A stretch of 64,000 bases of DNA from Moniliella sp. 'wahieum' (GCA_003971905.1 RSEE01000094.1:62001-126000), one strand, 5' to 3'; shown: positions 1,770 through 63,269, counted from the first letter of the stretch. Translations and numbers: made by a program. The notes: a model not told the origin generated them from the letters alone.

Positions 1770-3968
1770 GGTGATGATGTACATGCGTGTGGGTTGTTGG
1801 GGAAAGGGAGGATTATTATGAGGAGTTTGGTCGTTGGATGAGAGAGCCGAGTACGTTATTGCTGTTGTGCGGGCAGTTGCGGGGGGGATGGTACACGTAG
1901 CTACTTTCTATACAGATCTCCTTTGGAGGGGGGAGCAAACGGGATATAATCAGTTACGGGGTTAGGTTCAGGGCCAAGTGTACTGAGGGAGAATATGGGC
2001 TGCGGAAATGTGCTACAGGCCTTAGGCCTTAGGCCTTGACCTTAGGCCTTGAGCCTGTTAGGCCTAAGGGTTGGTGGGGCAGCAGCCTGCACGAGTTGCG
2101 CGAGTCCGAGCAGACGCGGCGTTTCTGAGACGATGATACATCGATCATCATGCATCAACCATGATCGGCATCATCATTGGCTTCAGTGAGGACTGGGAGA
2201 GAGGCCTGGGTAATATACCGGCCTTAGTTACATAGAAGCCTTTTTACGTATCAAAGACAGGACGATCTGGAGTTGCTATAGTTGCTAGTTGTGACCCGGT
2301 GCGCGTTGTGGGACCCCGCACCGACTAAGTTACACGAGTTTGCCACCCCCAGAGGCCGCAGCGCCCCATGCAGCACAAATCCTGGTCCGGGCCTGCGGGA
2401 GCAGCTAGGAGGTGTGGATGAAATACCCGAAACCAGTGGTGTGTGGAAGGCGGCAGGGCATATGCAACCGACCTGTTTCTGCCTCCCCCGCTTGTGTGCA
2501 TCATGTGATCGGCCTTTCCGGGGAAATCTCATCAACGTACCCGGGCACCCTATTGTGCACGTGTAAGCATGTGAGCGCATGGGCACAGCAGCGCCCAGCC
2601 TGAGCGCGTGAGCACGTGAGTAGCGACCAGCATGTGCAGTACAATACACCACCGCTTCCACTAGTCGTCCGAGGCTTACAGCAGAAGGTGTGTTGGACAG
2701 ATGCCTCTTCCCACGCCAGTTCTTCCACCTGGGACGAGCTGGCGTGGGGCTATTAACGTTGTGACGCGATAATCGAAAAACCCACACCAGACCAGCGCGT
2801 AACGCGTAACGCGCGTAACGAGAGGAATGCATGAATGGGCGGGTGACCAACTTCTCCGCACAGCTATATTAGCATGGAGTCTGGCGCAGGGGTCGTCTTG
2901 GTTCGTCTCTCCATTACCATTCCACACCATGCGAGCGAAGTGACTGAAGCAGGGAGAGGCCCGATCATCGAACAGATCTCAGACTTGAGAAGCTTCAAGC
3001 CAACGTAATAGTTACTAGTTACTAGTTACTAGTTACTCGTACCGGTTACCGGCAAGTTACCCGCCACCTTAGCTGCTAACCCTGCCGACACGCCGCATTC
3101 CATTTGAGGCGCTCAGGCGCTCAGGCAAGGAGGGGGGGAACACCAGTGGACGCCTGTGGCTGTGTGAAACCCATATCCTATCTCCCATCCTGCACAGAAT
3201 TCCGGATGGATGCCCGGGGCGATCAGTACGTAGCTAGTAGCGCCGTGCCGTGCGAGCAAGTCTATTGTTACACGTTGCTAGTTACTAGTTACTAGTTACT
3301 CTCCCTCCCGCCGGCCACCCAAGCAGTTCTCTCAAGTCCCCTGCAGTCCTCTGCAATGCCCTGTGATGCATGTGATGCATGTGATGCATGATGCAGTCCC
3401 ATGCAGGCGCGAGCCGAGCTGCCGTCGGGAAACGTACCGCGTTCTGACGTAGGTGATTAATGAGAGACGTGCCATATTCCCTGACCGTGTCATGGGTGAC
3501 CGGTGGGTACTCCGTCCGTACTGGGGCGGTTAAATGCTAACACTGCTTGAACTGCTTAACCCTTCCTTGCGTCGGGCAGTCCACATGTGTCCTCATGCTG
3601 TCCGCGCGAGGTGGCTCAGCGGCAGGGAGCAGGGACGCTTGGGAGGCCAGGATGTGTGATGATCGATGATCGGTGCGAGCTCAGGCGCAGTGCGGGACGC
3701 ACTGACGCGCTGCGGCGCTGATCGGGGGATCGGCACAAGGGCCGGCAGGGACAGGGGCGGTGTGTGGGATGCGGCCGGGGGCGGGCAAGGCTGCTGTGCG
3801 CTGCTGTGCCGGCCGCTGCCCCGCACTTTTCCATTCAGAAGGCCACCGACACGCATAACCCGTGCGTGCTTCTGGTCTGCGCTGGTGGCAGCCGCTTGGG
3901 ACCGATGGCTGATCCTCGATCCGCCTAATCCATCCCAGCCCGAGCGTCCGAGGCGGAGGTGCTGCTGC

Positions 3969-3977
3969 TATATATAC
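3969..3977 (+). promoter_or_regulatory. Candidate TATA element of the GH1 gene
   Basis: TATATATA about 55-60 bp upstream of ATG 4031 in otherwise GC-rich DNA. Confidence 0.45.
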
Positions 3978-4030
3978 TGATCCTCGCGCGCCCAATACAC
4001 CCCCGTGCGTTGCCTCTCCCCCCCCCCCCA

Positions 4031-6909: not shown

Positions 6910-7310
6910 CCGAGCGGAGCTAGGGACGAGGAGAGGCCTTTGGTGGGGCGGCTGCACATGTGGCAAGACTGCGTAATGCACCGGATTGGGCCGTAGTAAC
7001 GTGTCTGAAGCCTCTGGGACTTAGGGACAGGAGGAGGCGATGGCAGACAAACACTGCCTTCACTGAGACCGGCACAGAGACCGGAAATCGACGCGGCTGG
7101 AGGAGGGCTCGCGCGACTGGACTGATCGAGTGCTGGAGGATGAGGTCGGAAGCTGAGGATGCGGGAGTTAAGAGGAGAAGAGGCTGCCTGTACTGGATCA
7201 ATTGGCTGATGGAAAATGGGCAGGAGTCGGACAGGGTAGGCGGGAAGAGGGATGAGGGTGTAGACGAGAGATGAGAGAACGAAAGGTGGGGGAAAGGATC
7301 CTCATCAACC
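6910..7310. repeat. Diverged direct repeat, copy 1 (partner about 8455-8800)
   Basis: Collinear shared blocks such as CCGGATTGGG..GTAGTAACGT, GGCTCGCGCGACTGG, GCTGGAGGA, GCCTGTA and ATCAATTGGCTG. Confidence 0.7.
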
Positions 7311-8454
7311 AGAGGGGTACAGGATAGATCAAAAGGGAGAACGGATACAAGAGGAGGTGTAGAAAGGAAGACACGTCAAACGATGGGTTGGTTGCCGCAG
7401 ACGCGACCGAGAAAGGAAAAGGAAGTGGGGACAGAAGCGACAGTCGTTGTAAAGATACCGTAAGCTTGGTGGCCTTCAGTATTTAGGCCATCCGACTTTT
7501 GGACTTGGGCGGGGGCGACTATTGTTGCACGGACGCATGTTGGTGTTGAGCCAGGTGGCTCGTGCTTTGGCCAATGTCCCTTCAGTTCCTCCGCAGGCCT
7601 AGGAGTTCCGTTGTTTTTCTCTCTCCTGTTTTTCCTTGTTCCGCAGCTTAGACCCTGGTGGCGACTCGCTGCTTGATGTTCCTCAGTAGGCGTTGCTGGT
7701 TGGCTTAGACCACTACCACCACCACTATTGCGATTGCATCACCCTCGAGGACCATCTGGACTCCAGGTCTCATCAGTTGGCCCCGAGCCACCGTTCCTAA
7801 TTTAACCCACCACCATCACATGCATCACACTTGGTTGGACTGCGGAGCACGCTCTCCTGGGCATGTGCGGAGCAGGCGGGCCTTAGCTTGGACCGTCCCA
7901 TCCCGCGTCCAACGCCGCCGTGACAATCGTTGAGCGTTTGACCGTTTGGTGTTGGGTCCTATTAACGTCCTAACCTGGTCGCTGAACTTGCTTCTCGATG
8001 CCTCTCATCGACATCAAGGTAGCATTACCCCGCATCTCAACGCCGAGGCCCATTCTAACGGGTTGGCCGAGCGGTTGCTGCGCGCTGACTGCGTGCGTAT
8101 ACTGGGAGTACTGGGCACTTGTGGAATCCGGACCGACAGCTGCGAAGGTAGTGGCATGTGGCACATGACATCTCTTTATTCCATGTTCGAGCAGGCAAAA
8201 GAAATGTGCAACCCTACTGCCCGCCGACCACGTGACGGGTGGGTGGGGCTCGCCAATGATCGGGCATATGAGAGTCGCGTCGACGCGTCCCTCCACTACC
8301 TTAAAAGGGGAGCGGTTGTGCAAAGAGTAACCGAGTAACCGTGGCACAAGGCGGAGTGGTGGGGAGCCAGGAGGATGTGAAGAGCAATTGGGGTATTTGC
8401 CACAACGATACGGGGGTGGGGACAAGAAGAGGAGGGGGGGGGGGGCAAAGGGGA

Positions 8455-8800
8455 TCAGCGGAACAAGGGAGGGGATGGCGCGGACATGCCTTTGGGCTTG
8501 AAGCCGAGGTGGCCGCACGCTTGGCAGGGCTGCGTATGCGCCGGATTGGGGGTAGTAACGTAAGGAACCCACGCCATGTGCTGTGGTAGGGGGAATCGAC
8601 GCCGCTGAAGGAAGGCTCGCGCGACTGGGCAGATGGAAAGCTGGAGGACGAGGTTGGATGATGAAGATGATGCAGCTAAGTGGAGACGAGAGGTTGCCTG
8701 TATTACTGAATCAATTGGCTGGAAACGTTCAGGAGTTGGACAGGAAAGGCGGGAAGGGACGAGAACGGAAGGTGGGATAAAGGATTCCCACTGATTGATG
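8455..8800. repeat. Diverged direct repeat, copy 2 (partner about 6910-7310)
   Basis: Same blocks in the same order and orientation as copy 1. Confidence 0.7.
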
Positions 8801-10923
8801 ATGCTGACTATTGGTTGACCCCTTTTTGGTAACCCCCTCCTCATCTCTAAGCCCCATCACACTGGCATAGATGTTGATAGAGCGAAGCAGATGAAGCTGC
8901 TAGAGTGCGACTTGGGTCCTACGGATCAGCTGCAAATCCGCCTTCAGACAGGCGTGAAGGCAAAGAGGTGAGCCACAAGTCTTCAGGCAACATCGAGTTG
9001 AAGGGACGGAAGGAGACAGGAGAGAGAGAAGGGAAATGAAGCGAGCAGGGCGCGCGCGCCCTGCGAGCGGAACTCTTCCGCGATCCACCGAGGGCCGTGC
9101 AAGGGAACCCCAGCACTACCCTCCAACAGAAGCAAGCGGAGGCTGCGAAGGCACTAAGAATGTCATCCGATAGCACTTCCTCGTGTGACATGTGACACAC
9201 CGGTGCATGTGATGCGTTGTGTGATGCGTGTGATGCACGTGATGGGTGGTGTGTGTGACATGGGGCATGCGGAGTTCCGGGAGTACCTAGCTACCTCGGC
9301 AACTAGTAACTAGTAAGGTACGTCCATTTTTGCGACAGCGCAGGGGGAGTGGGTGTGCTGGTTTGCCACCCTGTGCGCACGCACAGCGGGGCTCCGCAGG
9401 ACTGCGCTTGGCTGGACCTGCGCATTCCAGGGATGGCCAATGGCCGATGGCCGATCGATGGGCTCAATCGTACTATAACCGAGGTTTTGTGGGTCTGGGC
9501 CATGCGTCCTGCGTCCTGCGCGCGGAGTGCAGGAGAGTACGAGGGTGGGGATGAGTACGATGAGTACACTGAGTCCTGTGCGTTGAAATTTGAATATTGA
9601 TCTTGAAGCTTGAGTACTTACTGAGTAACTGAGTGCGTCGATTCGATAACCGAGGGCACAGCCGCGGTGCGTTCGGCGCCGTTCCGTTAAATACAAGGGT
9701 AGGTGATCGGTAGGTGATCGAGATGATCGCATGCATCATGCATGAAACATCATGCATCGTGGCCGAATTATTTCCACCTAATGAGTACGTTTAATGAGCA
9801 CGCAGGGAAGATCGGCGATGTGCAGTGGCGGGAGCAGGCTGGGCTTGGGCCTGGGTGCAGATAGAGCTGCTGGTGGGGAGGGGCCGGGGACAGCTGGAAG
9901 GCCTGCAGGGCCGCACAGCGGTCGGCTGGCGCGGGCCGGAGTGCTGGGTGCAACGTGTAAGCGCTAAAAGGCCAACACTGCTCGCTAAGCGCCAACCCAG
10001 GGGCGGGCAGAGGCGCAATGTGGGCCCAGGGCCTCCTCCGAGGGGCGCAGTAGGCGCAGTGCGGTGTAGTTCGCAGGACCACGCTCGCCCTGGCCAGCGG
10101 GGGAGGAGTGTGATGCGTGTGAGAGATGCTGTCAGGTGTGCGGAGCGTGTCTCAGGAGCGGTCTCGCTAGGCTGGGCCAGTGCGGGGGGGCGGAGGGGGG
10201 AGCGATCGGGTCGGCTTGGCTTGGCTTGTGCCTGCTTTGGCTCATCGTCCCCGACAGACGCTCGCACCGCCCTCGTGGCCGCCGCTGCGCTCCAGGCGGC
10301 TCCCGGCCGCTACCTGCTGCTGTGCCGCATGGGGACGCCCAGGAGCGCACATCGGGGGTCCCAGCAGTGCGCCTCCGCCGTTGGGCCGACGCTGCTGGGG
10401 TGGCGCGTGGGTGGGGGCGCATGCTCTGACAAGCGGCGTTGGTCGATGGCATGTGCAGTGCCCCGTGCCGGGGCGGGCGCACAGAGCCAGTGTGCTGCTG
10501 CGTGTGCCATATATAGCGCGACACGGCCTGGGCACGCGGCTGCCTGCTGGTGCGGCGCACATGAGATGGGTGATGGGTGATCGGGGGCAGCGCCAAGGGC
10601 CAAGCTGTGGAGGATGCGATGAAGCCTGGAGCGGACGGACGAGAGACGGCGCTCCGATCGCTTCTTCGGGCTCGCGAAGAGCACCAATGGGCTGCGTCGA
10701 ATTGTCGCTCACACATCACGCATCAGCTCTCACACCCACGGATGCCCACGCGCCTCATCAGCCACAGCCATCGTCTATATCATCCTCGCCCTCTCGCCAC
10801 ACCTCTCCGCTGCCCAGCCCTGCCCCCCACGCAGCCCCCCCGCAGCACATCGCTTTCCTTGGCACCACCACCACCTCCCGCCTCCTCTTCGGGCTGGCCT
10901 CGCACCAAGCCTCTCGTAGCAGC

Positions 10924-13454: not shown

Positions 13455-15008
13455 AGGATCGCTCCCTCCTCTCGCTCCCCCCTGCTTTGGTGGGGATCTC
13501 TCTTGTCACCCGTCCTCCCCCCTCCCTCTCTGTCTCTTCTTCTCGCGCTCGACTCCCTTGTCTTCCGTGTGTCCATCAGTAGCTTAGTCCCCCTCTCCTT
13601 GCTGGTGCCGTCATCAGGTTGTGCACCGATCCGTTCCCGTACCATCTCTCTGCTTGCTCTCTCCCCACCAATCTATCCCTCCCCCACTGGTTCTCTTCGT
13701 GTCCGCTATCCCTCCCCCCTCTCTTCCCGTTTGAGATGTATCTTGCCATACTTACGGATGTCTCACTGTTCCTATATACGGAACGGCTTATAGATCCTTG
13801 ATATTTGTCTCCTTCCTCCCCCTCCACCTCCCGATTGTCGCTGGGCCATAGTTATTGGTTTGGTCTCTCTATTCCATAACCGGCATAACCCCACCAAGGC
13901 CGCGCTCCGATTTCAGCGAGGGTAGTAAGGATGTTTGTCAGAACAGCAGACAAAATACGGTACATGCAGCGCGCTCCATTTGCATCCAATGCGGCGCCCT
14001 CTTTCTCTCGCATCTTATTCTCATCGGGCCTCTCTATCCATTTTGGGTTCCCTTTTTTGCTGTTGCGTCTGGACGCATGCTCACTTGTCTTTTGCTCTCT
14101 TCCACCGATGGTACCGATTGCTTGCCACCGCTTCCTCGGCTACAGCATGGGAAGGACGTGGGAGATGTCTGGAAGACTAGACTCTGACCCGACCTCGCTC
14201 GCGTGCAAAAGGTTAAAACTCACGGAACAACGCCATACCCCGGGCACGGGCCGATGTGACATACACGCCAGACCCCCACGTGTCAGGGCTTCCACCCCTC
14301 CGGCCAACGCGTCTATATACCAACATGCCAAAAAGGGATGAAAAAACGTGTGCTAAAAACCAGAAACTAAGCAACCCAACCCACGCAAGACAGCAAAGCA
14401 ACAAGCCAACTGAGAAACAAAACAGAACAAAGCAAAACCAAAAAAAAAAAAAAAAAACGGGCAAGCAGATAGGGCAGGAACAAATCCCGCCCAATTCACT
14501 CTTTGTCGCCCGCGACAACAGGAGATCATGGCAATGGCAAGGGAGGCAACGTGGGCGCCCAGAGAAACGGGGGCAGCGCCACGCGCCAAGCGTCAAGCGT
14601 CAAGCGACGGGCCCAGGAGGCAAAAAAAGCAGCGGAGAAAGGTCCTCTCACCTTCTCGTTCATATAGACAATTCGTGGTGGGAGAGGCGGCAAATGCCTG
14701 AAAGTTAAGGTGGGGGAGAAGCAGGTCGAAAACAGGAAAATCGGAGTGGAGGCGAATGAAAAGATGGTGGATCGGCCTCGCATGAACATGAAAACGCCAT
14801 GGGCCATCAGGCCTCAGGTGCAGCGTGACGTCCTGAGAGCAAGCTGTGCACCGGGAACGTTGAACCGAGGGAACAGGTGCACCAAGATACGGATCTTGAT
14901 GGGTTTGGCTTGGCCAAAGTGGACCACTGCACCGCAGGACCCACGGTTGCAAGGCATTCCTCTCAATCACCATTGGCGCGGCTCTTCCTCGGATGGGCAT
15001 GGTCACGT

Positions 15009-15986
15009 TTAGTGTTGCACCACGACGGCGGCCCGGACCGCTTTCAGCATGTCCTGGAACGAGGCCACATGGCTCACTTCCGATGCCGCCGAGGAGTACA
15101 CTCGGTTCCACGCTGCCGATGCAGAGGAACCGACCGGCTTGGCTGGCGCAGCCGAGGAAACCTGTTTGTTCTGCTTCGAGGAGGGGGAGCCAGCGAGATG
15201 TTGGGCTGTGGATGGCGACGCCTTGCCGGCGACGCTGGTGGCGAGGAGGAGGAGAGGACGATGACGACGACGAGGACGATGACGAGGACGATGACGAGGA
15301 CGATGACGACTGCGATGCGCTCCCGCCCGACTGAGACGCCTTGGGCCCACATCCCGACGGCGTGCCATCGGCAAAGGACCACGTGATGGGGAAGGTGCCC
15401 TCCTTGGGTGAGCCGAGCCTTGAATAGACCGGCAGTCAAGTCCAAGTCACAGACTACATGGTGCAAGCGCACACGTCAGTACTCAGTACTCAGTACTCAG
15501 TTCTACTGTTGTCGCAAGGATAGGAGAGGGAGAGAAGAACGGACCGGAAGCACATGTGGAAGTCTCTGCGTCGTAGGGGCATGTGTCCATCAAGTGAGCA
15601 AGTTGTTGGGTTCCATTGGGAGCGTGGAGGATGATGGCTTTGAAGCACAGATCTTTCTCGGACAGACCTTCTCTCTTAACCGATCCCATCCCGCCTGGGA
15701 AAGAGCGACGCCCATCTGCACAACGCAACCACAGCACAGGTCAGAACATGGGTGAGCAATTACAGAAACGCAGCGGATGGGCTGGGAACACAGTAGAACA
15801 CACTACAGTCGCATGCGATGGGAAACGTACAGTGTTGTCGCTCATCGGGGGCCCGCCGCAGCTACCGACGGCACTAGCGCCCTCGGTTTTGGGGTGGTAA
15901 AAGGTAGCCTGGCCACGGGCCGAGGCGAAGGTGGGCAGGGCAGCCAGCGCGAAGAACGAGAGAGCAACGAAAGAGAAAGAACGCAT
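15009..15986 (-). CDS. Secreted RlpA-like / expansin-like double-psi beta-barrel protein with Ser-rich tail; introns about 15716-15830 and 15454-15544; frameshifts present
   Basis: Signal peptide MRSFSFVALSFFALAALP, then GQATFY..GSCG, MDTCP and CDLDLTAGLFKA..GTFPITWSF, which is the typical fungal DPBB pattern. Poly-Ser is encoded by a 12-bp repeat at about 15261-15310. Confidence 0.75.
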
Positions 15987-16968
15987 GGTGGGTGGGAGAG
16001 ATGGAGAGGATGTCGTGTCGAGGTTGGACGTAGCCCGAGGCGGTGGGGTAGAAAAGACGGTGGTGAGGATGAAAGGAAGGTGGAGATTCAGGGCGAGAAG
16101 AGACCGAGGAGCAAGAAGGGGACAGGCAGATGGAGGGAGCGATCAAGCAGACAGTTCTCTCCACATGGGCCTATCCATACGTCCGCTCCACGGCACCACA
16201 TGCACACCCGCATAGACTCAGCTCACCGTCACCGGGTCACCGCACGAGCGAGCAAGTCGCCAGGTCTAGCTTGAAGCTTGACTAGAGTGACTTCGGAGCT
16301 GGTCTGGCCCAGCGTCGATCTTTGATCATGCATGCGGTGCCCTGCATCACGCGTCATGCATCATAGAACTTGGTCTCAGATCTCACTCGCCTCGCCCGAC
16401 CCTTGGGCCTTAGCCTTACTGCCCCTTTGTACTTAGCAGCAAAAAACTTATATGGCCGACCCTGGAAGCTTGATAATCACAAGTGTCAATCACATTAATC
16501 CAGCCTCCATGGCCCACGAATAATGCCTAACGCCGATCGCTTCGGTGTCGGCGGGACAACCCAGCACAACCCGACCCAGCGCCACTGTGCCGCTGTGCAG
16601 CCGTATTTCACCGAGCGCTGCCTGCAGCTCGCTTATTAGCTTAGCCTAAGCGCTGAGCATGGTGGCGCACACTGCTTCAGTCGGCAGCGCGAAGCAGTGC
16701 CAAGCAAAAGGCCAACACGCATCCCCATGCAGACTGGCCTGCCGCCTGCCGCCTAGTGCAGCTCGGAGCGTTCGGAGCGCTGACGCCCTCCCTCGCTCTC
16801 TGCCTCGCTCCCCACCTCTCCGGACCGAATCGGACCCATCAGAGCCTCACTAGCTCACTGCCTCAGCACTCACTCACCGACACTGGCAGGACGATCATCT
16901 CGATCATCGATCGCCAACCACCGATCACAGGTCACCGGTCACCCCCATATGCCAGCTGGTGTTGCGCC

Positions 16969-17054
16969 GCATGGTGCATGATGCATGGTGCATGATGCAT
17001 GATGCATGATGCATGATGTGCATGATGCATGATGCATGATGCATGTGCATGCAT
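16969..17054. repeat. (TGCATGA)n heptamer array, about 11 imperfect units
   Basis: Read directly; the longest member of the TNA-palindrome repeat family. Confidence 0.9.
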
Positions 17055-17326: not shown

Positions 17327-18849
17327 CGATTCTCGATTATCGCGTTACGCGTTACGCGTTACGGGGCCTCTGGGACGTGTGCATGATGAGCCAGAGCGTA
17401 CCCGCTCTGTCGAGCAGGGAGGCGGTGTGAAATTTGTGAAAGAGGGCGTCCCCCATGGGGCCCAACGTCCAACACCGGGTAGATTGCATTTGAAATGCGA
17501 ACAGGCCGAGTTGGCAATACTGCCAGACCAGGTTGCAACCACACACCGCCCATGGGCGCTGGCTCAGCTAGAGGCTGGCTTGCTTCTGTCGTTACGCACA
17601 CTCACACCATTACCCACCACCCCCACACCGCCACCGAGAACCACTTAGCCTAGGGGGCTCGCATGGATCGCAGTAGGTCTAAGTAAAGACTCGGCGACAT
17701 GGAAATTCAGAGATGCACCACGTATTGGGGCGAACTTTTGACAAAGGCGTCATTTTGGGCACAGTTATGGTCACCTAGATCACTTAATAAAGCTGACACG
17801 CCACCGCCCCTGGGGACCACAATGGTCCTCGAGGGTGATACAATCGTACGTTGTGGTGATGCAGGTGTGGTCTACGCCAACCAACAACACATTCTACCGC
17901 TGGACCGGACATCCCCGGGCTTGACTGGCAATACTGAAGCGAGAAAAAGGCGGAGCTTCTAGTCCTGAGAATGGACTGAAGGGACCTTTTTGTCCAAACG
18001 CATCACGAGAGCCACTCTGTGGCACACATCATGGTTGTGGATGCGCGTTGTGGTGCCGCCCGTATTAAACAGGGCGGGCATATACGCCTAGCTCCCACCT
18101 ATATCCTCACGCCCATCGGATGCGCTCCCAACCCATCAAAGCACGTCGAACCTCACAGGACTATCCCTTCTGGTCGGAAGTGGCCAACGTGCTATATCAA
18201 AGGTATGTGAATCTCTGATCGGAAACCTGTCATTGATGATTCTTAAAAGTGCAGACGGCCAAATCTGGGAACCTCTCGAGAACGCACTCAGAAACGGTGG
18301 AGATGGAGGTTGTGTCTCCTTTTTCGGTGAAACGGGGGAAGAGAGTGTTCATGGATGATGCTTGATTCGATCTTTAATACTAGCGGGAAGCGCCCAGCGT
18401 GATGTTCGCTAGCCCTGGGTGTCCGGCGTGAGGCGCGCCCACGGTTTTTTTGTGGGACGGGTCCGAACCAAGTGGTGGGCTTCCAGCAGACCAACGCTTG
18501 TGCGTGTCGGGGGTGGCAGAGCGACTTGGGGCCGAGATGGTCCGTTCTCCGCTTTTCGGCTTTACCCCTACAGCACGGCTTGAAGTCTTTTCTGTTCGTA
18601 TGGACGAAGGGAACTCCTATTTCTGGTAGGCGACACTCTATTATTACCATCAGCCTCAATATCGCTCAAGCTGAGCAGCTGAGCCCAGGTAGCAGCTGCG
18701 ATTTGTGGGTGGCATGCCAGCTTCTCGCGTCTCTCATTTCTCTACTCCGCGTCCCCACACCCAGCAATGGCTAATCGGGGGTGCAAGAGGCCTGCTGAGT
18801 CCTCTCCCTGCACGGGCCCCGGCATCTAGACTATAGACATTGCATCTTC

Positions 18850-24227: not shown

Positions 24228-26772
24228 GGCAGGCCGAAGCGGTCGAGAGCGCTCGCAGGAGGGGTGGATGGGCCGGTACCGATGGCGAGAGGGCCGATGG
24301 ATACGGCCGATGGAGAGACGGCCGATGGAGAGACGCCCATGCTGCGATGGGCAGCGGGCGCCGGACTGGCAGCAGACCCGCATGATGGATCAGGCAGATG
24401 CTGGCCAGAGCCAGTATATCATCCGCGAGCGCAGTTTCTTCCTGTGCTCTCGCCGCGAGTCACTAGCCACGGCACCGGCACACGCATCGGACATCACGTG
24501 ACTGTCGTCTCGGCAGGCCAGCATCTCCATCGAGGTGCCAGCGGAATTCTGAGTGGGTGAGGCCGATCGATGATTCACTAGTGCCAGTCCGACAACTGAC
24601 CCGACTGGCCACCGCCGAACGTACTGAACTGGCTGCCAGCAGGACTGACCCATAACTAGTGTCTAACAGCGGCTGTAGCATCACCGTGAACATCGAGGGG
24701 CGGCGGCCGCAAACGCGTCGTCGATTGAGCCACATCTTCAGAACCCAAGCTTCAGAGTTTTTACGGATGGAGCCTCAGAGGCCCGGGCGGCAGCTACTAT
24801 CAGTGTCGGTCTAGCGCCACCAAGGTTAAGGAACCAGGTATACCACAAAAGTCGAAGGCCTACTACACACCGCCAAGGCAGCAAATAATATGCGATTCGG
24901 GCTGGGTTTGATGGCATGCAGCTGCATGCACAGCGGATGGTGGCCTTCCCGAAACTTTCTATTAGATGGATGGGATCAACCTATTAACCGACCGCCCATG
25001 GTGCTTCGATTCCCACTTTATGTTGGTTCTGCTCGAGACGGTGGAGGCTATCACTGCCAAAAGGTGGGCGCGCAGACCGCAAATTCAGATTTCGTCCGTC
25101 GGCAAAGTACCGGCCCCGTATCGTCATGACCAGGGGGAAGAACGGTACTTGAGTGCGTCCGTGCAGTGGTATGCGGTGTTTTCTTGTCATAATCTGCTTG
25201 CACCCGCGGTCGATGTTCAGCCTTCTGCTACGTTGCGAAGGCGTTGCGGTTTCCTTGTATATCACCTTCCGGAACGGAACCGTTGGCCTCCGTTGGGTCC
25301 ACAGGTCCCTCTCACTGAATGTTGTCTACTGCAACAGTCCTCGGACCTCAGCCTCAGTACTGAGCGTCAGTCCACACTTGATGTGCACTTACTTCGCGAG
25401 GAACGGCATAGGGGGGGTACGGGGCCCTGAGCTGGAGAGAATGCGAAAGCTATATTAGGTGAACGAAATCGTTATGTCCATGACATGTGACAGTCCATGT
25501 GACAGGTCTCCGCCTCTCAGGACCTCAGGGTGAGGCACAGCCTCAGCCCCTGCTGCGCTCACGCGCTCACCCATAGAGGGCCTCCGGGATCTCCACCCTC
25601 TCAAAACGTCCAATATCCCACGTCCAAAACGTGCTCTATCTTGATAACGGAGTCGTGGTTATCAGTACGCAGGACACGTCACGCGTCAGATAGGTCCGCA
25701 CGCATATTTAACGACAGGTCGGAGTAACATGTGACAGGGGTGACTTTGGGCAGCAACCATCTCCGAAGCACGGTGCTGCTGCTGCGCTGTTGTGGAAACA
25801 TACAAACTAAACATACTTAAGGGGGACAGCTCAGGGATGCGGGCCCCAGTGCCAGCCACTCCCTCCTCTTTATCTGGCTTTAGGGATAGGGGGAAGAGGC
25901 CGCAGGCCACAGAAGGGCTTTAGACGGGGTCTTCCCCCCTGAGGGCGTGGGGCCGGGCCCTGAGGAGCCTGAAGTGAGGAGCTAGTGAGGGGAGGGCGGA
26001 CGACAAACGTCACAGGGCGTTGAACTGAAGATTATAAATGCGAAACGCGTTCTTGCAGCATCAAAATGGCCGAACCGAGGTCGTGAGCGCGTGAGCACCG
26101 ACGATCCGAGTTGAGCTTCAACGCTGATGCTGGTCTGGTGCTGAGAGGAGCACCGTGTCCTGTGGAGTTGCAAGTCACAGGGACGCGTGAGAGCTATATA
26201 GTAGTGCTGCGCTGGAGACCGTGACGGAGACAATAGATGTTGAACGTTCAAGTTGAACGTTACGTTGAACCTGACGAGTTAGTCGTTCAACGTTCAACGC
26301 TTTGAACAGGGGCGCTGTGGGGCGCTGTGGGCAACAAGTAGCTCGGGCTAGGGGTTCCCGGTTATGTCCTACGATACGACGTGTGACATGTGACAGTCAC
26401 ATGTGACACTCGGGGCAACCCGTAGCCGGGAACCTCACGCCCTGAGGGCATGAGCGCTGGCTGAGCGCCGAGCGCGCTCAGACTGAGCTGAGGCCGTTGC
26501 CCAGAGCGTTTATCATCGCTTTTCATTCTCGCGCATGTGGGAGACGAGCAGCGTGGAGAGGTTGACGTGTGACGTGTGTGACGCATGACGCGTGATGACG
26601 AGGAGACGGGTGACCGGTGATATATGATACGGGCCAAGGCGGCACTGCAGCGCACGGCGCTCTGCCGGGGCAGCGGTGCGCCTGACACTGGCGCCCTGCC
26701 GCCCACTGCTCTGGCTCTCCTCTGGCGCCGCGGTCTCCGCTCAGGCTGAGCTCAGCACCCTCGACGGACTGA

Positions 26773-43891: not shown

Positions 43892-44869
43892 GACAGCAGC
43901 AGGGGCAGATGTAGGCTGATACGGGCACAGGCGAGGGTGAGAGTGAAACTCAAGATGGCGGTGGTGGGAAAGAGAGGAAACGCAGAAGCAGTGGGCCGGA
44001 ACCCGGATTGGCCCTACCCGCGAGGGGGGGGGGCGCCGCTTCTGCCGCTTTGGCCTCTGCCCCTGCCTCCGCCTACGCCGCCTCTGCCTCCGCTTCCGCC
44101 TCCACCTCCGCCTCAGCGGGCCTCAGCCAGCAGTGCCACTGCGCCATCCAGATCGAGCACTGCTCCTATGCCTACCCCACAGGGCCTCTGACTTGGAAGG
44201 CGGAGTACCAGTGTACGGAGATACCCCATGCATCGAGTGTCTTGCACGGCCCACCGCACAGGGGCTGTATCGGGCCGCCCGCTGCCCAAGCCGGTACAGC
44301 ATCCATGCGTTCGTGCGGCCAGCGGGGGCGCGGTAGCACCCGGTCTGTGCCGAATTGAGATACTGAGGGGGCGGGCGAGCGGCGGTACAGGCCTGTGCAG
44401 CGCCAGTGCTGGCCCGTGCCGGAGGCTGAGCCGCTGAGCCGCGGACGGGTGAGTGTGGGCCAGTGCAGGGACAGCGGCGCTGTGCCCCGGGCGCGGGCGC
44501 AGCCGCTGTTCCTTGCCACGCGCCCCGCGCGGGCACTGGCTCCGGCCCCGCGCTGTTCCAGATGCACCGACACCTGGCCCGCAGCCCCCGCAGCCCCACA
44601 CGCCCACACGCCGCCTGGGGCTGGCGGCCCCCGCGCTCGGGCTACCCATCGGGTGCTGACACAAGCACCACGCTGGCTGTGCTCGTTCGGGGTGTGGGAA
44701 CCCTTCCCATCGACTCGCCCATACTGCCTCGGTGGGTTGTCCCACCTCTGCTTCCACTCCCCTAATAGCGAGCCTCGCAGCAGGTCCAGGAGCTCTGTCC
44801 GGTCGGATTCCAAATTCCATCCGAGAATAGCCGACTCGCTCTTATCAGACGGCCGCGCACCAACGTACC

Positions 44870-44906
44870 CTCATCGACCTCATCGACCTCATCGACCTCA
44901 TCGACT
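44870..44906. repeat. 9-bp tandem repeat (CTCATCGAC)x4
   Basis: Read directly. Confidence 0.85.
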
Positions 44907-45241
44907 CGTTGATGATCACGAAGATCGAGGGGACTGTATCCAGGAACCCACGCCTGCGTCGCCTGCTATATGACTTCTGCGTGGGTATATATGGGTACGG
45001 CCGTTCGCTCTTCTGTTCACGCGGGTCACGTGGACAGCCTAGACAGTCTCACTTCAAGAGCTTCAAGTTTCGTACTCAGTACTCACACCACACACTCCCT
45101 TTTTTGTTCGCTTTAATGCTTTGTTAGACACCATAATTTTTGCGTTACGGGACATTGGACGCCTCTAGTACACAGGCGTATCCATTCGACAGGATCATAG
45201 CTTATACTTACCGGCACTTTGCATTCATATATCACACAGTC

Positions 45242-47410: not shown

Positions 47411-48763
47411 GAGTCTGGGCAAATCGACTTATTCGTCGCCCCGTGAAAGAGTCGCACCGGCGAGTTTTTTGTCGTCGCCCTGTACGCCCTGTTATTATTC
47501 ATTCAGCGAGGGTCCAGACAGATTGAAGCAAGTGGCCCTATAAGAAAGATGGTTCGTCTGTGGAGAGAAATCTCAGCACGAAGAGGTTTTGTGGACTGGA
47601 CGAGTGCGATGATGTTCGCTTCACCGTCACCCCCAATGGCCATTTTTGGACTCAACACACCTGTCCCGTCACAGTACTGAGTGATGGAGACAATCAAACA
47701 TGGTTGCCAGTCATCGACCAGGCCGGCCTTCCTGCTCTCCTGATTTTCTTGCCCCTTCCCCCCCATCAATATAGGCTTATTTTGAGGGCAAAATCTGCCA
47801 ATGTGGGAATTAAAGACGTGAAAGACGGGAGCGAAAGCGAAAAGCCTATAATAGTGGTACACTCTGCCCACGAGAAAAGACGGGCAGCATGAGGTTCTGG
47901 TATGAAGCCGGCCTAAAGCTTGAAGGCTGCACTGGTACAAGGGTGGACTTGTTAGTGCAAGACGTCCTGGTCGCTTTGAATGGGGGAGGGGGGGGGGGGC
48001 GCTCTTCGTACACGACAGACGGGCGTATGAATATTGATTCAGTCAGCCTATCCGGCCTGAAGGACCTGATCGATGATCAGTGATCAGCGCTCAGCCCGCC
48101 CCAGCTCAGCGCCTGTCGGACACTCCGACACCGCAATGCAAGGTTTCAAACGGTAGGTGGTTGCTACGTTTGCATCGTCCTAACAAACAAATAGCCGCGG
48201 CAGGGTTATAGGAGCATCATGCATCATGCATCATGCATCATGCACCAGCACGTGCGTGTCCCAGACATGCCATGCCATACATGTCAAAATGCTACGACAG
48301 GCCCATGTCACATGTCGCAACGCCTGACAAAGAACTGTCAACAGTGAGTCTCACAGTAATGTTAATGAGACTCAATTACTCAGTACTCAGTGAGTACTCT
48401 CGTACTCCTCGCAACAAGTGAGCTCGAAAACACCTTCCACTCAATTCCTACCTGCGAGGTCCCTCCAAAACCTATGTGCGCTGTGGTCATAATCGACACC
48501 ATCCTCGGTCGGGGAAGAACTAACGCGGTCCTTTGTCTCTCGCGATTCAACTGAAAAACTAACATATTGTGTCTCTCTATTTAACTAAGCTTAAGCTTCG
48601 ACCCTTCAAGCTTCAAGCTTCATGCTTCAAGTTATAGCTTCATGCTTCAATAAGCCTCAACGTTGATTAAGATAAGATCGATACGAGATCGTAGCACTAA
48701 TCAATATCAGAGTTACTTTCTCGCTCATGATTTCGTCGACCATACAATGCCGAAACGTGGCCC

Positions 48764-49790: not shown

Positions 49791-49795
49791 AGTGT

Positions 49796-56503: not shown

Positions 56504-57996
56504 ACTGGTAGCGATGGTGCTTGGGCGCATACAGAAGGAGGTGGTGGTTGAGGGACAAGAGAGCACCTCGCCGCAACCGGTTCGATAGTCGCGAGGACCG
56601 GGATGTCGTACGACGGGCGTGTGGCTCAGGACGGTTGCGGGGGATGCTGAGGCGCCGAGAGTGCTGAGGTGCTGAGGTGCTGAGGTGCTGGGGCAGGCTG
56701 AGGCGCTGACGCGCTGGGGGTCTGGGCTACGCAAAGCCAGGTGGGGGTCCGTGCGGGATCGGTTCAACCTCGGGGGCGAAATTGCACTTTTAGCCCCTGG
56801 GTAGCACAGTGGCAGCACGCATGCGCCGACCCAATAAGGCTGCGTGCGGGACTGCGCCAGATGAGCACCGCGCCTATTATATTCCACCACCCCCTGTGTG
56901 GCCATCGCCGCCGCAGTCACTACCACCATCTCTGTCTCGTGACTACGTAACAATGGATGCTGATGCGGCCGAAGATGCAGTTATTGCCAAAATCTTTGGT
57001 ATTTGTGTCGTGTCTTTGCCTCTCGTTCTACCCACTGCGTTAAGTTGGAGAAGGGAGGCAAGCCAAAGTCAACACTGCCATGGGTATGATTGGTGAGCAT
57101 GTGTGCAATATCAGCGGGGTAGGTCCCTTTGCTTCTCGCGTGAGTCCCACGAACGGCCCTCGAGCCATCGAACCCTTTCTTAGAAAAGGGTTCTGGACGG
57201 CGCCAGCCTTGCAGGCAACTTTGTCGTCGGACCCAAGGAAGCACCGGAGATCCCGGCGGGATCGTTGATGTTTTTGATTGATGACTTTCCCACGCAGTTT
57301 CCCGTCAACGTATCTTCTCTTGGTCTTAACGGCCCTGGGTCCAACCCACCTCAAACACCCAGTGTGCCTGTCTGTATAGCTCCACATACTTCCTTGGCAA
57401 GTGAGGTAAAGGGTCATACGACAAGCATAACTTTTGCCATAGAAAAGAGACGTAGTCGGGTGACAACTATCACCTTACTTGGAGCGGGAGCGCGCATCTT
57501 TCTGCGTTTACGGCGCAGACGGCGCATGCGTTTCTTCCTCCACTTCGCGCGCACTAGAAAAGGCAGCGAGTGTCAGTTCACAAGGCGTAGGGACATCAGG
57601 AAAGCTGGACAAGGGGTCGCGACATGGACGGTGGTGGTGAGATGAGGAAAACATGACTTGATTGCAGTGAGTAGCAGCAACAGTGGCTTACCGCCCGTAG
57701 CACATGGGGTCTACGGGCCAGCGGCTAGAGAGCTAGCAATAATGGCGTGGATGACGTCAGCCCATTCTGAGGCCTCAGCCTGAGGCTCAGGCCCTGAGGG
57801 TTAGACAGGGTTAGACCCGGCCTGCCGGTTGCCGGTTAGCGGTTCCCGATCATCGAGATCATCGGAACGATCTCAAGTGGTGTGGGTTGTCTGCCTCTCA
57901 CCGCCAACAGCCAACGGCCAAGGTTCTTCTATCTCCTACCTCCCATCCCCACCTGGCCCCTTGGTTTATCATACTCTCGCGGTCTTGTTGACAAAG

Positions 57997-58334
57997 ATGA
58001 CTCGCGCACCAGCTGCGGCGCCTGCGGGCACCTCTTTCCTGGCGCGCGCCGGTACGCTGACCAAATTTGGTGCAGCCATGGCGGGCGGAGCAATTGCGGC
58101 GTCCTTGGTCCTTAATCAATGGAACGCAGTACGGAGCACTTCCCTCTTCCTTCTTCCCTTCCCTCTCTGATCCTGGTGCTAACTATAGCTGACTGTTGTG
58201 TATGGGCCCAGGGCGCGACCAAGTCGGATGCCGATCGAATTCGCGAGACGGACGAAGCAGTGAACAGGCTCCTGCGTCAGTCCAAGCCCAAGCGGAAGCT
58301 GACGCTGCCAAGGCCAGCGCGGGCGAACCTCTAA
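57997..58334 (+). CDS. Small spliced single-TM protein (about 84 aa); exons 57997-58128 and 58212-58334
   Basis: A phase-0 intron (GTACGG..GCTGAC..CAG) joins two open frames. The product has a hydrophobic FGAAMAGGAIAASLVL segment followed by a charged tail. Confidence 0.55.
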
Positions 58335-59839
58335 AGAGTTGAATATTGAACGTTGAACGTTGAACAGTCAAGGGATGCAATGGATGCAATCCTCACCCGG
58401 GGTCCAAGGAGTTAGGCGCTGTTTCTCCCCTAAAAGCACGGAGGGCTCGGGCTGAGGCCCAAACGGCTCTAGTTTGCGGCATGTCGATGAGGGTTAACGC
58501 GTGTCCTTCTCCCACGTGAAGGAGCAGCAGCTGGCCCTTATTCCCCACCCCCTGATCATTGAATCTTTCCTTAGCCCCGAGCCATTGACTCCTTCCCCTA
58601 CCGATCAGATTGGTTTCGCTACGTCGCATCCATCAAGTGTAAGACCACCGCCCGGTACTTGCTTCTATGCCACATGGATTCTACTGTTCACAACGTCCAC
58701 ATTCTTCGTTGGGAGTGCGTTCATTCCCTTGTCCCTTCCCTGTCGTCCTTGAAAATGTCACGAACCTTCAATTGGCCCCATCTCTCACTGCATCTTTCCC
58801 CCCCATCTCGTTCCACTGAGGGCCAAATGCTTCTCCCCAGCTCTTCATTTAGGCTGCTTGGTTCCTCTCGAGAGTGGGTCGGGACGGCTACCGCGGACCG
58901 CGTTACGGATGCCCAAGCACGAGTCCTGTTCCCTATCCACACACCTGGACCGTTCCGATTCGATACTACCATAAAGCACTAACAAGGGCGCTCAAGTGGG
59001 GTGGAAGATAGGGTCGGAGGTCCGAGGACAGGGAGGCAGGGTGGCCTGGGGTAACCTAACTGGCAATTGAGCTGAGCACCGTGGGCAGGGGATCCTGCCC
59101 TTGGCCGTATGCGCACGAGTGACGGTTCACAGTTCACGTGACCTCCAGGTCGGTCGATGACGAGGCAGCGAATGTTGCACTGGTTAGGGGACGCGGCATT
59201 GGAGGTAGTTGAATCGGCTCTCTCGGAAACAGTGGTTGGCTGGAGTGAAGAGATTGAAGACGGTGCTTTTTGTGGGTCAGGCCGGTCAGGTTAGGCGCCG
59301 GGTGTGAGCATATGTGAGGACCAGTGGTGAAGAAGACAGGTTCATAGCCGGCAAGGAAGATGGTGTCAGACCAGTACCTTCAAAGGCATTCATATTGAAT
59401 CTCGATGTCTTTTTCACCACACCTCGGGGGACCTGCCGTCCCAGCGTCCTTAGCCTTGCGTGGAACCCAACACAGGTCCAGTCCCTGAGGATTGTCTCGC
59501 ACGTCTCACTTGCTCCTCCCCCCCGCCCCTGTCCCCACTACCGCGTCGCTGGACTAGCACAACTTAGCAGCAAGTTTACCACGCTACCAGCTTATATCTT
59601 ACCAAGCTAGGGTCGTCGTGACGCCTGATGGTGGGAAGCGGCGCACCTAATCTGGGAAAGACAATAAATGACTCGCATCAGGCCGAACGGCACGTGATTG
59701 AACGTATGAAGAAGTGAAAAGGGAGGCGCGCCAAGCATGTCGCTTGAAAAGGAACGGCTACGTGGGTCTGTGGACACAGGTGGAGCGCTGGAACGTTCAA
59801 GTTGAACGTTAAGGTAGGATTAGGCCTTAGGGACCAACA

Positions 59840-61753
59840 TCAGGGGGCCGACTGCGGGGTATAGGTCAACCAGACATGGTCCAGCGTCGTGGCATCGCCC
59901 AGGACAGAGAGGGACCAGGTACGATCGGTGCTAACGGCCACTACGCCCAGGCCCGAATTGGACCGCGTACGAACGGTCGGGAGAGGGGAGGGGGCAGCCG
60001 GAGTAGAGTGACGCCAGGCAGCTTGATGCGCTTCCACCCACCCCCTCGGTCGCGGCGGCGGGGCAGGCAGAGGAAGGTGGAGGGCCAGGAGCAGATTCGC
60101 AACTCGCCCCTGGCACGCACTCCGCACCTCCGTCTCCCATGCTGCTGCCAACCGAGCACGAGGTGGAGTGAGTTTGGTAATCCAAGTTGTACCACCCGGC
60201 GAACCTGGGACAAATCCAGCGGTGTAGTGATAGTAGGGTCAGCGTGTAATTCGGCCACCACCTCGTGCACGCTGGAGTTGTTCGTCGTCGGGCGCGAGTG
60301 AACGAGATCATTAGGAAGGTCAGCCGGCAGGTTCACGCGACCGCACTCGCCGTCCATCTTCCGGCTCGTCCTCGTCCTCTACCTCCGCCTCAGCTTCCGG
60401 GTTCCTCTTCTTGTTCCATAGGTGGTAACTCGAGGCTTCCTCCCCCGCAGAAATAGCCGTGCCCACTAGAGGCGTGTGGGAGCCAGACGACGACCGCTCC
60501 TCCTCTAATGGTTGTGGCCGGGTCGGAGAAGGAGAAAGGCTGGGAGAAGCGGGTTGGTCGGGCGACCCGGCAAGCCGATGTTGAAGGAGAAGAGACGGAA
60601 CCCCCTCGACCCCGGCCCCGACCTCGTGAGGTAGAAGGTGCGCCCGACGAACGCGAACGAGAAACAGATGAGGTCCGGGGAGGGATACGCCAAAAGACAG
60701 CTACATGGGTAGCATAGGAAACTCCAGCCCTCTTGGTCCGGGTCTGAGCTGGCTCGTCGCGGGAAACATGAGAGGGCTCTGCCACCTGTGCTCCAACTGC
60801 CCCGGGGCTAGGGGCGCATCGGGAGCATCACGGGGGTGGGAAGACGCCAGCCTTGGGAGTTACCATCGGCTCCTCCTCCATCCCAGGCAGGCAAGTCGGT
60901 GTTGCTGGCGGCGTGTTGACTTCGCTGCGCGCAATGTCATCGGCCCGCCAATCCCGCCAATCTCGGCAATGTAGCCATGGGCCCGGGCGGCTCGGACAGC
61001 CCAACGACGAAAAACTCGCCGGAGTCCATTCAAAATGTGTTGCTTCGTGACGGAACTTGCGCTCGGTTTTGCCAGTAGGGTCGGGTCGGAGAGAGATACC
61101 GCCGTCGGGCATCGTCAATTTGGTCCTTCCCTACCGGTCTTGGTTCAGGTGCACATGAATGCGTAGTTGGGGGTCGTAAGAAGGACGACTTTGGGACGCA
61201 GGCGACCGAGCACTCGGAGCAAACGCCTGGGCGACAGGCTCGGTCAAGTGCTCGATACTGTTGGGAAGACACTGTCAGGATAGCCGCACAAAAGAGAGGC
61301 CAGCAGGCACGTACACTTCGGTTGCTACAACGGCGTCGTAGCCTTCAAGAGCAGGGTCATGCTGAGCCAGATTGCCGTGGAGGAGGCGAACGTCGAGCGG
61401 GGCAAATCGAGGTCGGGAGGGGTCGTCTGAGGCGAGGACGGAGCTGGACGCGCATGAGCCTGGGCAGCTTGGGAGCATTCACGTCTAGGCCGGTCAAGAG
61501 ACGCGGGGCGTGTCGGCGGGGGGGGAGAGGAAGAGAGGCGGGAGAAGGAGGAGGGGAGGGATGGGGGGGGGCGAGGAAGCAGGACTGGTGGTGTCGTCAA
61601 GATGGGCAGGGGCGGAGGGTGCGCGGTGGGCGGGCGAGGATGGCGGAGCAGACGGCCAGCGCCGCACCGAGGTCGAGGACGGAGCCGGGCTGGATCTCGG
61701 CGCGGGCCATGATCCAGGGTGGCGCTGGGAGCCACAGCTCGGGGGTCAAACAT
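59840..61753 (-). CDS. HEN1: HEN1-type small-RNA 2'-O-methyltransferase; intron about 61259-61313; frameshifted; ends approximate
   Basis: Restored frames give FDPELWL, the SAM motif SVLDLGCGAGRLL, LLHGNL, YDAVVATEVIEHL, LLTTPNY and FRHEATHFEW. Confidence 0.82.
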
Positions 61754-63269
61754 GGGCGTGGGGGATGGTGGTGGTGGGGGATGGTGGTGGTGGGGGGGGG
61801 GGATGGGGGGGGAGGGGCGGAGGAGCGGCGGAAGAAGGGGCGGGGGGATGATGCAATGGCGCGTGTTGTGTGGTGCGGTGCTTCGGTGGCTTCGGCCTGT
61901 GGTTGGCGTGCAGCTGGGGGAGCGGCTGGAGCGGCGGCTGGGCGTGGAAAGGGGCTAGGCAGCCGGCGCTGGTCAGCGGTCCTCTCAGCGGTCGCCCAGC
62001 CTCAGCTCCCGGTATGCATATGCAGCATGCATGATGCATGCGTCATGCATCAGCTACCCCCTACAGGGAGCGCCACGGGACAGCGCCTGGTCGGACAGCG
62101 CACGTTGCACACAGCACGCAGCGCCAGTGTCCGGCGGGGGCACAGTACGCCCACGCTGCTGTCACGCGTCACGTGCCATGTCCAGGCAGGCGCTGGGCAG
62201 GCGCCTGCAGCAGCTTCCTCCTCACACTGCCGCGCAGCTGATTTTTGCGCGCCGTAATAATCGTGCAGGCGCAAGCCTGTGCAAGCCTGCAAAATTTACC
62301 TTGGCAGCGCTAAGGCTTAGCGTACGGTAACCACATCCATCAGCCCATCAGATCTCCGATCTCTCTCAGATGCCATCTCCGCCCCAACCCCATGCAATAT
62401 GCACGCGGCAAGAAGATTGGCCGACCCCAATGGGCACACACTGCCCCCCGCTGCTGCCGCACTCACCGCCTCCGCGTACTCAGCCCGAGTCCCCAGGCAC
62501 CCAAGTCCTCCCAAGCCCCACCCGCACGTCATGCGCATGCCATGATAGTCATTAGTCACACGTCACACTGACTTGGTCGTTACGTGATTCCCATCCCAAT
62601 GAGCGCCTCTCTCCGCTCCCCAGCATCGTAATTCCAGCAAAGCTAAAAGCCAGCGAGTAATTACGTAAGACTGGTCCCATCCCTTCAACCCTACCTCCGC
62701 TGGCCCTGCCCCTTCCCAAAGCACTCTATTTCTTTGCCTTTGCCAAAAGCGCAACCAGTTTGGCGATTCACCGCGGCGGGCTACGAGCCAACCGGCCGGG
62801 CCCCATCGGCGTTCTCACACCTACCCCAACTCAGACCGCCAATGAAGCTGGGCAGCAGACACTCTGGTGCCGCCCCCCACTTGTCTCCGGGGACGATTGT
62901 AGTGCGAATCATGTGGTGTGGACAGAGGTGAGATCGATGAGCGCGCTCATCTTTTGAGGGTTTTTAACTCTGAACCATCTCTAACGAGATTTTATCGATA
63001 TTCAATCCTCAACTAGTTCTTTCCAGTGGCCAAACATGTTGGTGGTCTTGATGGCATAGTGGTGTCATTTGGGCATCCGGACCAGCGGATACAGGATGGA
63101 CTTTGGTTGTGTGCTATAGATGACTGTCATTTTGCCCGCTAAAAGGCGATGGATACTACTATCAACCACCCCGGCCTGGTACAATAATTTGATTGCCAAA
63201 ACAACAGATTCCCAAACGGTTCCTCACCCAGAGACCAGATGTCCACCAAGACAGCACACGCTTTGCAGG

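Follow-up and report, generated by a model that had tools for sequence, protein, structure and literature searches.

Across 64,000 nucleotides of the Moniliella sp. 'wahieum' assembly (GCA_003971905.1, RSEE01000094.1:62001-126000; this whole stretch is called the window below), a 4-bp palindrome recurs between two TNA triplets (T.A-pal4-T.A), singly or in tandem arrays. The pattern is real and highly significant. Judging from the anatomy of the sites, we consider it likely, with a probability of about 0.7, that they are dense, young excision scars of a cut-and-paste transposon of the flank-hairpin type, which makes a 7-bp nnTSAnn target duplication. The source would probably be one DNA transposon, or a few related ones, located outside the window. 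Sites are written ab-TNA-xyy'x'-TNA-cd, where a prime denotes the complement, and S>W means that S is preferred over W at N. Positions are counted from the first letter of the window, and the scars carry no strand. The complete set is:

2022..62171, no strand: 105 T.A-pal4-T.A sites, in 81 chains and 13 blocks.

Chance levels were taken from dinucleotide shuffles, 200 of the whole window and 100 more within 500-bp blocks. The 105 sites compare with 8.3±3.0 (maximum 18) in the former and 8.7±3.1 (maximum 17) in the latter, and an estimate of about ten chance sites per 64 kb, made in an earlier sequence-only reading of this DNA, was thus sound. All 18 example strings listed in that reading are present and start exactly where it placed them. 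It also proposed counting palindromic against non-palindromic spacers; only the palindromic ones are enriched, and T.A-nonpalindromic4-T.A sites are at chance level (130 vs 133±11 in shuffles). Isolated half sites, that is, TNA plus pal4 alone, show a weak excess (364 vs 331±17).

As negative-control DNA we used 80 unrelated metagenome loci (690 kb), found via the tryptophan synthase open reading frame (ORF) of the window with an identity of at most 53% over a segment; no close relative is among the 80. These loci contain 82 palindromic and 1095 non-palindromic sites (7.0% palindromic), and 18 sites with the same N in both triplets. A share of 7.0% is about the chance value of 1/16, in keeping with a lineage-specific pattern. 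The nearest named homologues of the tryptophan synthase belong to Microbotryomycetes (Rhodosporidiobolus and Rhodotorula, 58-60% identity with about 40% of the query covered). A literature search, with most subscription journals outside its coverage, found neither TNA-pal4-TNA motifs nor genome-wide 7-bp scars described for a fungus.

The two TNAs of a site are direct repeats, because their middle base is identical in 85 of the 105 sites (2.4 expected); complementary middle bases (TGA..TCA) occur in only about 10. When all 64 triplets are tried as X in X-pal4-X, the excess is confined to TNA triplets, put at about 40-fold each: TGA (36 vs 0.89), TCA (35 vs 0.90), TTA (9 vs 0.20) and TAA (5 vs 0.22). 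The 9 ATG and 6 CAT matches are other phases of TGATGCA arrays. Four is the sole working spacer length for TNA-pal-TNA, as same-N sites number 85 against 2.4 at 4 nt, 12 against 8.6 at 2 nt, and 1 against 0.4 at 6 nt. The sequence-only reading had stated that all 16 palindromes are used, and every one is indeed present, AATT being the scarcest (1 site). The 7-bp period that it described has the strongest excess among periods 3-12 (56 runs with at least 7 matched positions vs 3.9). A TNA+pal4 unit is present in 64 exact period-7 runs of 12 nt or more (0.96 expected) and in 32 of 14 nt or more (0.04 expected), while runs centred on ANT, CNG and GNC are near chance (5, 2 and 4 vs 1.2, 1.7 and 2.3). 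The recurrence of symmetry every 3.5 bp, also claimed there, holds and is a trivial consequence of the repeat unit.

The palindrome derives from the DNA beside the site. In 70 of the 85 same-N sites the spacer is either cd plus its reverse complement or the reverse complement of ab plus ab (0.34 expected). Counted per chain, with orientation normalised, at least 2 nt of flank match in 47 of 61 uniform-N chains, on both sides in 16 of them. Matching is symmetric, with 31 cases upstream (21+1+9) and 32 downstream (18+6+8), and its extensions are most often 2 or 4 nt, 3 nt being rare. Among period-7 runs those of 12 nt are the commonest, and nearly all begin at a TNA edge or a palindrome centre; they are therefore not random fragments of longer arrays. 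The usage of the 16 palindromes tracks the background dinucleotide frequencies of the same regions. Outside the sites the single 7-mer y'x'TNAxy is not enriched (206 vs 192.5±14), and enrichment is found only in the duplicated form. The targets deduced from the scars read nnT(S>W)Ann, with little preference elsewhere (n=59). Among single +7 scars that match a flank, 10 of 38 lie on palindromic-flank targets, against 1/16 expected; this over-representation is probably due to their two overhangs being identical and annealing. Three single scars and one chain serve as illustrations:

25481..25492, no strand: single +7 scar, one-sided, TGA-CATG-TGA and then CA; the copies of the repeat TGACA are separated by TG, the reverse complement of CA.
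16374..16385, no strand: single +7 scar of the mirror type, TC-TCA-GATC-TCA, in which the upstream flank equals half of the palindrome.
9184..9197, no strand: single +7 scar on the palindromic-flank target TG-TGA-CA; with a match on either side, exact period 7 extends over 14 nt.
26609..26629, no strand: chain GG-TGA-CCGG-TGA-TATA-TGA-TA, with the putative target GGTGATA.

In this last chain the palindrome of the left flank (GG) adjoins that of the right flank (TA), so that both alternative outcomes appear at one putative target.

Sister classes in which the whole 7-bp repeat is visible give the length of the duplication. Direct 7-mer repeats of the form nnTNAnn at spacings of 7-13 nt number 79 against 1.25 expected, divided among spacings of 7 nt (33 vs 0.15), 8 nt (10 vs 0.12), 9 nt (20 vs 0.20) and 10-13 nt (16 vs 0.78). 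At spacing 9 the anatomy is a whole 7-bp repeat, 2 nt reverse-complementary to the repeat end beside them, and the repeat again. Searched without the TNA condition, this arrangement (W7+P2+W7) is found 31 times against 0.88 expected; 17 of the matches are TNA-centred, T standing at position 3 and A at position 5 (0.00 expected), and the remainder are mostly phase shifts of these loci. With one flank-complementary nucleotide (W7+P1+W7, spacing 8) there are 7 TNA-centred cases against 0.05. At spacings of 12-13 the filler consists of 5 or 6 flank-complementary nucleotides (P6 and P3+P2 examples), and these long P tracts yield the minority of TGA..TCA sites with complementary middle bases. Both overhangs are kept (TNA-pal4-pal4-TNA) at 1 site against 0.12 expected, and a plain 7-bp tandem duplication lacking a palindrome is found at only 2 sites. 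A net gain of 7 bp is by far the commonest, followed by +9 and then +8, longer gains being rarer. Because the +8 and +9 classes repeat the whole nnTNAnn, the duplicated target is 7 bp long, and the repeats show insertion with a 7-bp staggered cut. Examples of these classes are:

9550..9565, no strand: +9 scar, GATGAGT, AC (reverse complement of GT), GATGAGT.
13875..13890, no strand: +9 scar, CATAACC, GG, CATAACC.
17426..17441, no strand: +9 scar, TGTGAAA, TT, TGTGAAA.
57848..57863, no strand: +9 scar, GATCATC, GA, GATCATC.
45052..45067, no strand: +9 scar with P nucleotides from the right copy, CTTCAAG, AG, CTTCAAG.
8326..8340, no strand: +8 scar with one P nucleotide, AGTAACC, G, AGTAACC.
9620..9634, no strand: +8 scar, ACTGAGT, A, ACTGAGT.
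26239..26258, no strand: +13 scar, GTTGAAC, GTTCAA (the repeat's final 6 nt in reverse complement), GTTGAAC.
26389..26408, no strand: +13 scar, TGTGACA, GTCACA (the repeat's initial 6 nt in reverse complement), TGTGACA.
26252..26270, no strand: +12 scar, GTTGAAC, GTT, AC, GTTGAAC, with 3 P nucleotides from the left copy and 2 from the right.

One sequence of events could generate all of these products. Insertion at nnT(S>W)Ann would create the 7-bp duplication. At excision the transposase would leave covalently closed hairpins on both flanking ends, each with its tip exactly at the duplication boundary, and host enzymes would open each hairpin a few nucleotides off the tip, mostly 2. If opened at 2 nt, the left end would carry the self-complementary 4-nt overhang cd+d'c' and the right end b'a'+ab. 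Joining of the ends would mostly retain one overhang and discard the other, with the result that the two inner nucleotides of one copy are replaced by the complement of the other copy's end. The commonest product would then be ab-TNA-cd-d'c'-TNA-cd or the mirrored form, which adds 7 bp net and reads TNA-pal4-TNA; rarer ones would retain both copies in full, with 1 or 2 P nucleotides between them (+8, +9), or carry longer P tracts (+12, +13). Flank hairpins that are opened by host enzymes and then sealed by non-homologous end joining are described for hAT, Transib, RAG and MULE (PMC5499845, in excerpt). Ac/Ds footprints in a fungus are reported as short deletions or palindromic P-nucleotide insertions (PMC5873905, in excerpt), and 7-bp duplications are on record for hAT7 in Pucciniales and Kyakuja in Laccaria (PMC12730594, in excerpt).

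The same scheme would explain the arrays. Each scar would make a TNA with perfectly palindromic flanks, and re-insertion and excision there, yielding two overhangs that are self-complementary and alike, would add an identical unit, so that arrays would grow because every scar creates a new palindromic-flank target. Replication slippage is a probable helper in this growth. Arrays in the window include:

15476..15501, no strand: (TCA-GTAC)x3 followed by TCA and GT; it begins at a TNA edge and stops at a palindrome centre.
48214..48244, no strand: tandem repeat (TCA-TGCA)x4.
16969..17051, no strand: the longest array, TGA-TGCA, 11.7 copies according to Tandem Repeats Finder (TRF), with variant units.
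44869..44905, no strand: period-9 array (CCTCATC + GA)x4.1, unit CCTCATCGA, a 7-bp repeat plus 2 P nucleotides.
56645-56716, upstream of the ADH_N domain of a minus-strand alcohol dehydrogenase gene: TNA-centred period-8 array TGCTGAGG, about 8 degenerate copies.

The longest array holds one period-9 unit at 17012 (CATGATG, TG, CATGATG). Reading frames overlap on both strands at the period-9 array (44869-44905), which could be a 3-residue repeat in a coding exon, tolerable there because 9 is a multiple of three.

One target recurs. GTTGAAC or its complement is scarred in at least 5 separate intergenic regions (19876, 26239-26299, 50604-50633, 58346-58365 and 59785-59812), and three of these regions share a quasi-palindrome, AACGTTCAA-G-TTGAACGTT or a close variant of it. 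GTTGAAC may be favoured as a target, or may have some function itself as a short sequence.

The window is fungal DNA of 56.5% G+C with many introns. A Pfam scan covered 60 of the 85 listed ORFs (cut-off at least 150 aa) and identified genes for GH1, SKN1/KRE6, a fused tryptophan synthase, a kinase, Rpb7, L1 and two alcohol dehydrogenases. As the coding map we took the 16 ORFs with a Pfam match (13.7 kb); a map based on G+C at third codon positions was discarded, as it marked ORFs that overlap on opposite strands. Not one of the 105 sites falls in these 16 ORFs, where 22.5 would be expected if they were uniformly placed, compared with 19 of the 130 non-palindromic control sites; the sequence-only reading had seen no arrays in coding exons. 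The long intron-bearing gene bodies at 9968-14806, 19974-25353 and 36991-45075 contain no T.A-pal4-T.A site. The 13 blocks lie at 2022-3669, 9186-9967, 14807-17361, 19878-19973, 25354-26627, 29689-30377, 34446-35319, 36981-36990, 45076-45234, 47914-50796, 54163-55377, 57768-59829 and 62043-62171, and the scars thus sit in the longer intergenic stretches, mostly promoter-side. They are kept only outside coding sequence because a 7-bp gain shifts the reading frame.

Several observations weigh against excision scars. The 64 kb contain no element with inverted ends and a 3-bp TNA or 7-bp nnTNAnn duplication (the search for inverted ends matched only heptamer arrays against each other), no transposase was matched by Pfam in the 60 ORFs scanned, and comparison of the window with itself gave no paralogous intergenic pair with a filled and an empty site. 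Insertion, excision and empty site are all deduced from the scars and none was seen directly. About 100 loci in 64 kb is an extreme density for footprints. Decayed copies are scarce, the excess over shuffles being 83 for perfect sites, 69 for sites with one constraint violated and about zero with two (518 vs 515.5); some of the one-off sites are primary products such as cdd'|b. With so few decayed copies the scars would be young or soon lost, implying high activity in the recent past. Neither flank matches in 14 of the 61 uniform-N chains, a number that would be consistent with subsequent mutation of the flanks at about 8% per position. Seven single sites have the full palindrome on one flank, which the scar model does not predict, and the filler T of the period-8 array (56645-56716) is not a P nucleotide.

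Some of these points would be met by an endogenous nuclease, for example a domesticated hairpin-forming transposase, that repeatedly cuts promoter nnTSAnn with a 7-nt stagger while no mobile element passes through. Fill-in and hairpin formation or turn-around synthesis, followed by end joining, would give the same products, and the scar anatomy would be the same as with a transposon. The lack of an element in the window, the very high density of uniformly young-looking sites and the scarring of one 7-mer, GTTGAAC, at several separate places all agree with such a nuclease. It requires extra assumptions, whereas insertion and hairpin excision give the 7-bp duplication and the P nucleotides free, and there is no candidate gene among the window ORFs scanned. 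We know of no endogenous nuclease system of that kind, and we regard this explanation as unlikely.

Replication itself might make or expand quasi-palindromic heptamers, through hairpin-aided slippage or template switching, as a hairpin with a 3-nt loop can form from pal4-TNA-pal4. Arrays as long as 11.7 units fit such a process, and slippage probably contributes to array length. Template switching, which the sequence-only reading had offered together with hairpin mutagenesis, predicts complementary middle bases, whereas about 10 sites have these and 85 of the 105 have identical ones. Slippage starts from an existing repeat and would leave runs of 14 nt or more, whatever their phase, but 12-nt runs at module edges dominate. 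The process does not explain 7-bp repeats whose copies are set apart by 1, 2 or 6 flank-complementary nucleotides, and we find a purely replicative origin very unlikely. An ordinary microsatellite, with slippage only, would have any unit sequence, array ends in arbitrary phase and two full units or more, and was rejected: 32 of the period-7 runs of at least 14 nt have TNA+pal4 against 0.04 expected, and 12-nt runs begin at module edges.

The sequence-only reading also listed excision footprints, with a 3-bp TNA duplication and a filler made of 2+2 nt of transposon ends. It was right about the kind of event; the duplication is 7 bp (nnTNAnn) rather than 3 bp, and the filler is a flank dinucleotide with its reverse complement in 70 of the 85 same-N sites rather than transposon ends. 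Its analogy with Tc1, and a Harbinger-type 3-bp TNA duplication in general, are contradicted by the 7-bp repeats of the period-8 and period-9 relatives. Footprints of this design, from a PIF/Harbinger-like (e.g. NuwaII) or mariner-like element, draw on the existence of TNA duplications in the PHIS superfamily, on NuwaII, with C|TNA|G, found in 2 basidiomycetes (PMC4482050, in excerpt), and on the 14 of 61 uniform-N chains whose palindrome is unrelated to either flank. The flank rule already contradicts them, as half of the palindrome equals the flank in 70 of 85 sites; 16 palindromes at background frequencies would need 16 different element termini, and the repeat reaches 7 bp in the +8 and +9 classes. 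Moreover, mPing/Harbinger elements whose duplications match are described as excising precisely, with no case seen in which both copies stayed behind (PMC4561436, in excerpt). The probability of such a source is very small. A 5-bp duplication model (TNAxy + y'x' + TNAxy) was rejected as well; it entails an asymmetric target, its mirror product is missing, and in the +8 and +9 classes the repeat is 7 bp long.

Selected cis-regulatory sites read by a dimeric protein that recognises TNA-N4-TNA, akin to the shape-reading protein of the sequence-only reading, are barely credible: the restriction to intergenic, mostly promoter-side DNA and the dominance of perfect over decayed copies suit them, but the spacer must be palindromic and yet is any of 16 palindromes at background dinucleotide frequencies, it copies the neighbouring dinucleotide, direct repeats suit a symmetric dimer poorly, single 7-mers are unenriched (206 vs 192.5±14), and frameshift alone accounts for the absence from coding DNA.

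As a rule, excision footprints are too short or too varied to recognise, and their regulatory contribution is known mostly from single loci. Here the fixed T.A of the target and the P-nucleotide rule make the scars legible, so that target and repair outcome can be read from sequence, and the roughly 100 events in one 64-kb window record, as a natural spectrum, how hairpins are opened and ends joined. The pattern is a pointer to a highly active element and shows a route from a transposon to short promoter tandem repeats; if it holds genome-wide, it would be a direct measure of promoter turnover due to transposon traffic. In the searchable literature, the combination of target, duplication length and boundary-centred palindromes appears to be new, as do the density of the scars and the seeding of promoter heptamer arrays. 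More tentatively, and with the odds against it, the source could be a hairpin-forming transposase lineage yet uncharacterised, defined by the 7-bp duplication, the nnTSAnn target, a hairpin tip at the boundary (in contrast to Ac/Ds), present or very recent activity in promoters high enough to leave about 1.5 readable scars per kb, and the seeding of heptamer arrays. In that case transposon traffic, or a transposase domesticated from this lineage, would largely have shaped the promoter sequence of this fungus.

Other repeats are present in the window. A repeat of about 225-235 bp occurs in three copies of 75-88% identity (45242-45467, 46404-46625 and, inverted, 51364-51575); it starts TGTCGGGATCAGAC, has a TATATA-like box inside and ends CTCCTGTTA, without inverted ends or an obvious target duplication, and could be a solo long terminal repeat, an element like a short interspersed element (SINE) or a duplicated promoter. 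A 170-bp direct paralogy of 79% identity links 7083-7247 and 8591-8756, in or adjoining the minus-strand ORFs 6923-7375 and 7973-8710, and may be an internal gene repeat or two paralogous exons. Hexamer and 12-mer repeats (CCGCCT, GCCTCC, CGAGGA) within long ORFs at 26934-27004, 44053-44114 and 15242-15309 are probably low-complexity coding repeats unrelated to the scars. Finally, ORF 61079-62254 contains a G-rich tract (61758-61843) with overlapping periods (GGGGGAT, GGGGCGGA and similar) and a G-quadruplex-like composition.

Compared with known transposons, the scars appear to be of a classical kind, and more than one superfamily of transposon is a candidate source. PIF/Harbinger, NuwaII and Tc1/mariner share the TNA (or TWA) at the target centre, and the mariner scar likewise consists of target-site duplication, filler and target-site duplication, but their duplications are 3 or 2 bp long and those in the window 7 bp. 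The mariner filler comes from the element ends and has a fixed few nucleotides, whereas here it is flank-derived, with 16 fillers at background frequencies. Harbinger excision is described as precise (PMC4561436, in excerpt), while the window retains scars. Kyakuja (KDZ) of Agaricomycotina has 7-bp duplications in a basidiomycete, as in the window, and CA..TG termini with no inverted repeats (PMC12730594, in excerpt). The hAT duplication is 8 bp, or 7 bp in hAT7, and the 7 bp of the window fits hAT7 only (same excerpt); the hAT targets nTnnnnAn (Hermes) and nnnTAnnn (TcBuster) differ from nnTNAnn (PMC10512250).

In the excerpted account of Ac/Ds both duplication copies are kept, junctions have short deletions and flank-derived palindromic P nucleotides, and one or two main products are accompanied by a tail of rarer ones (PMC5873905). 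In the same account the centre of an Ac/Ds palindrome is the complement of the base next to the element. Here the centre is the exact duplication boundary: Ac-type junctions are found 0 times as c-d'-a'-b, once as c-d'-a-b and 0 times as c-d-a'-b, against 70 exact-boundary sites.

In V(D)J coding joints and Transib, as in our scars, the predicted hairpin tip lies at the cleavage boundary, opening is a few nucleotides off it, and the P palindromes are of even length. RAG-type P-nucleotide palindromes are typically 2 nt per end. Transib target duplications are 5 bp long, a length that does not fit the window, since a 5-bp reading needs T1 and A3, an asymmetric target, and the +8 and +9 classes repeat 7 bp. 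The flank-hairpin pathway itself is shared by RAG and Transib (PMC5499845, in excerpt). As in the footprints of hAT, Transib, MULE and RAG, both copies of the target duplication are kept in the window (79 vs 1.25) and the junction nucleotides are the reverse complement of the adjacent flank, that is, P nucleotides (70 of 85 vs 0.34).

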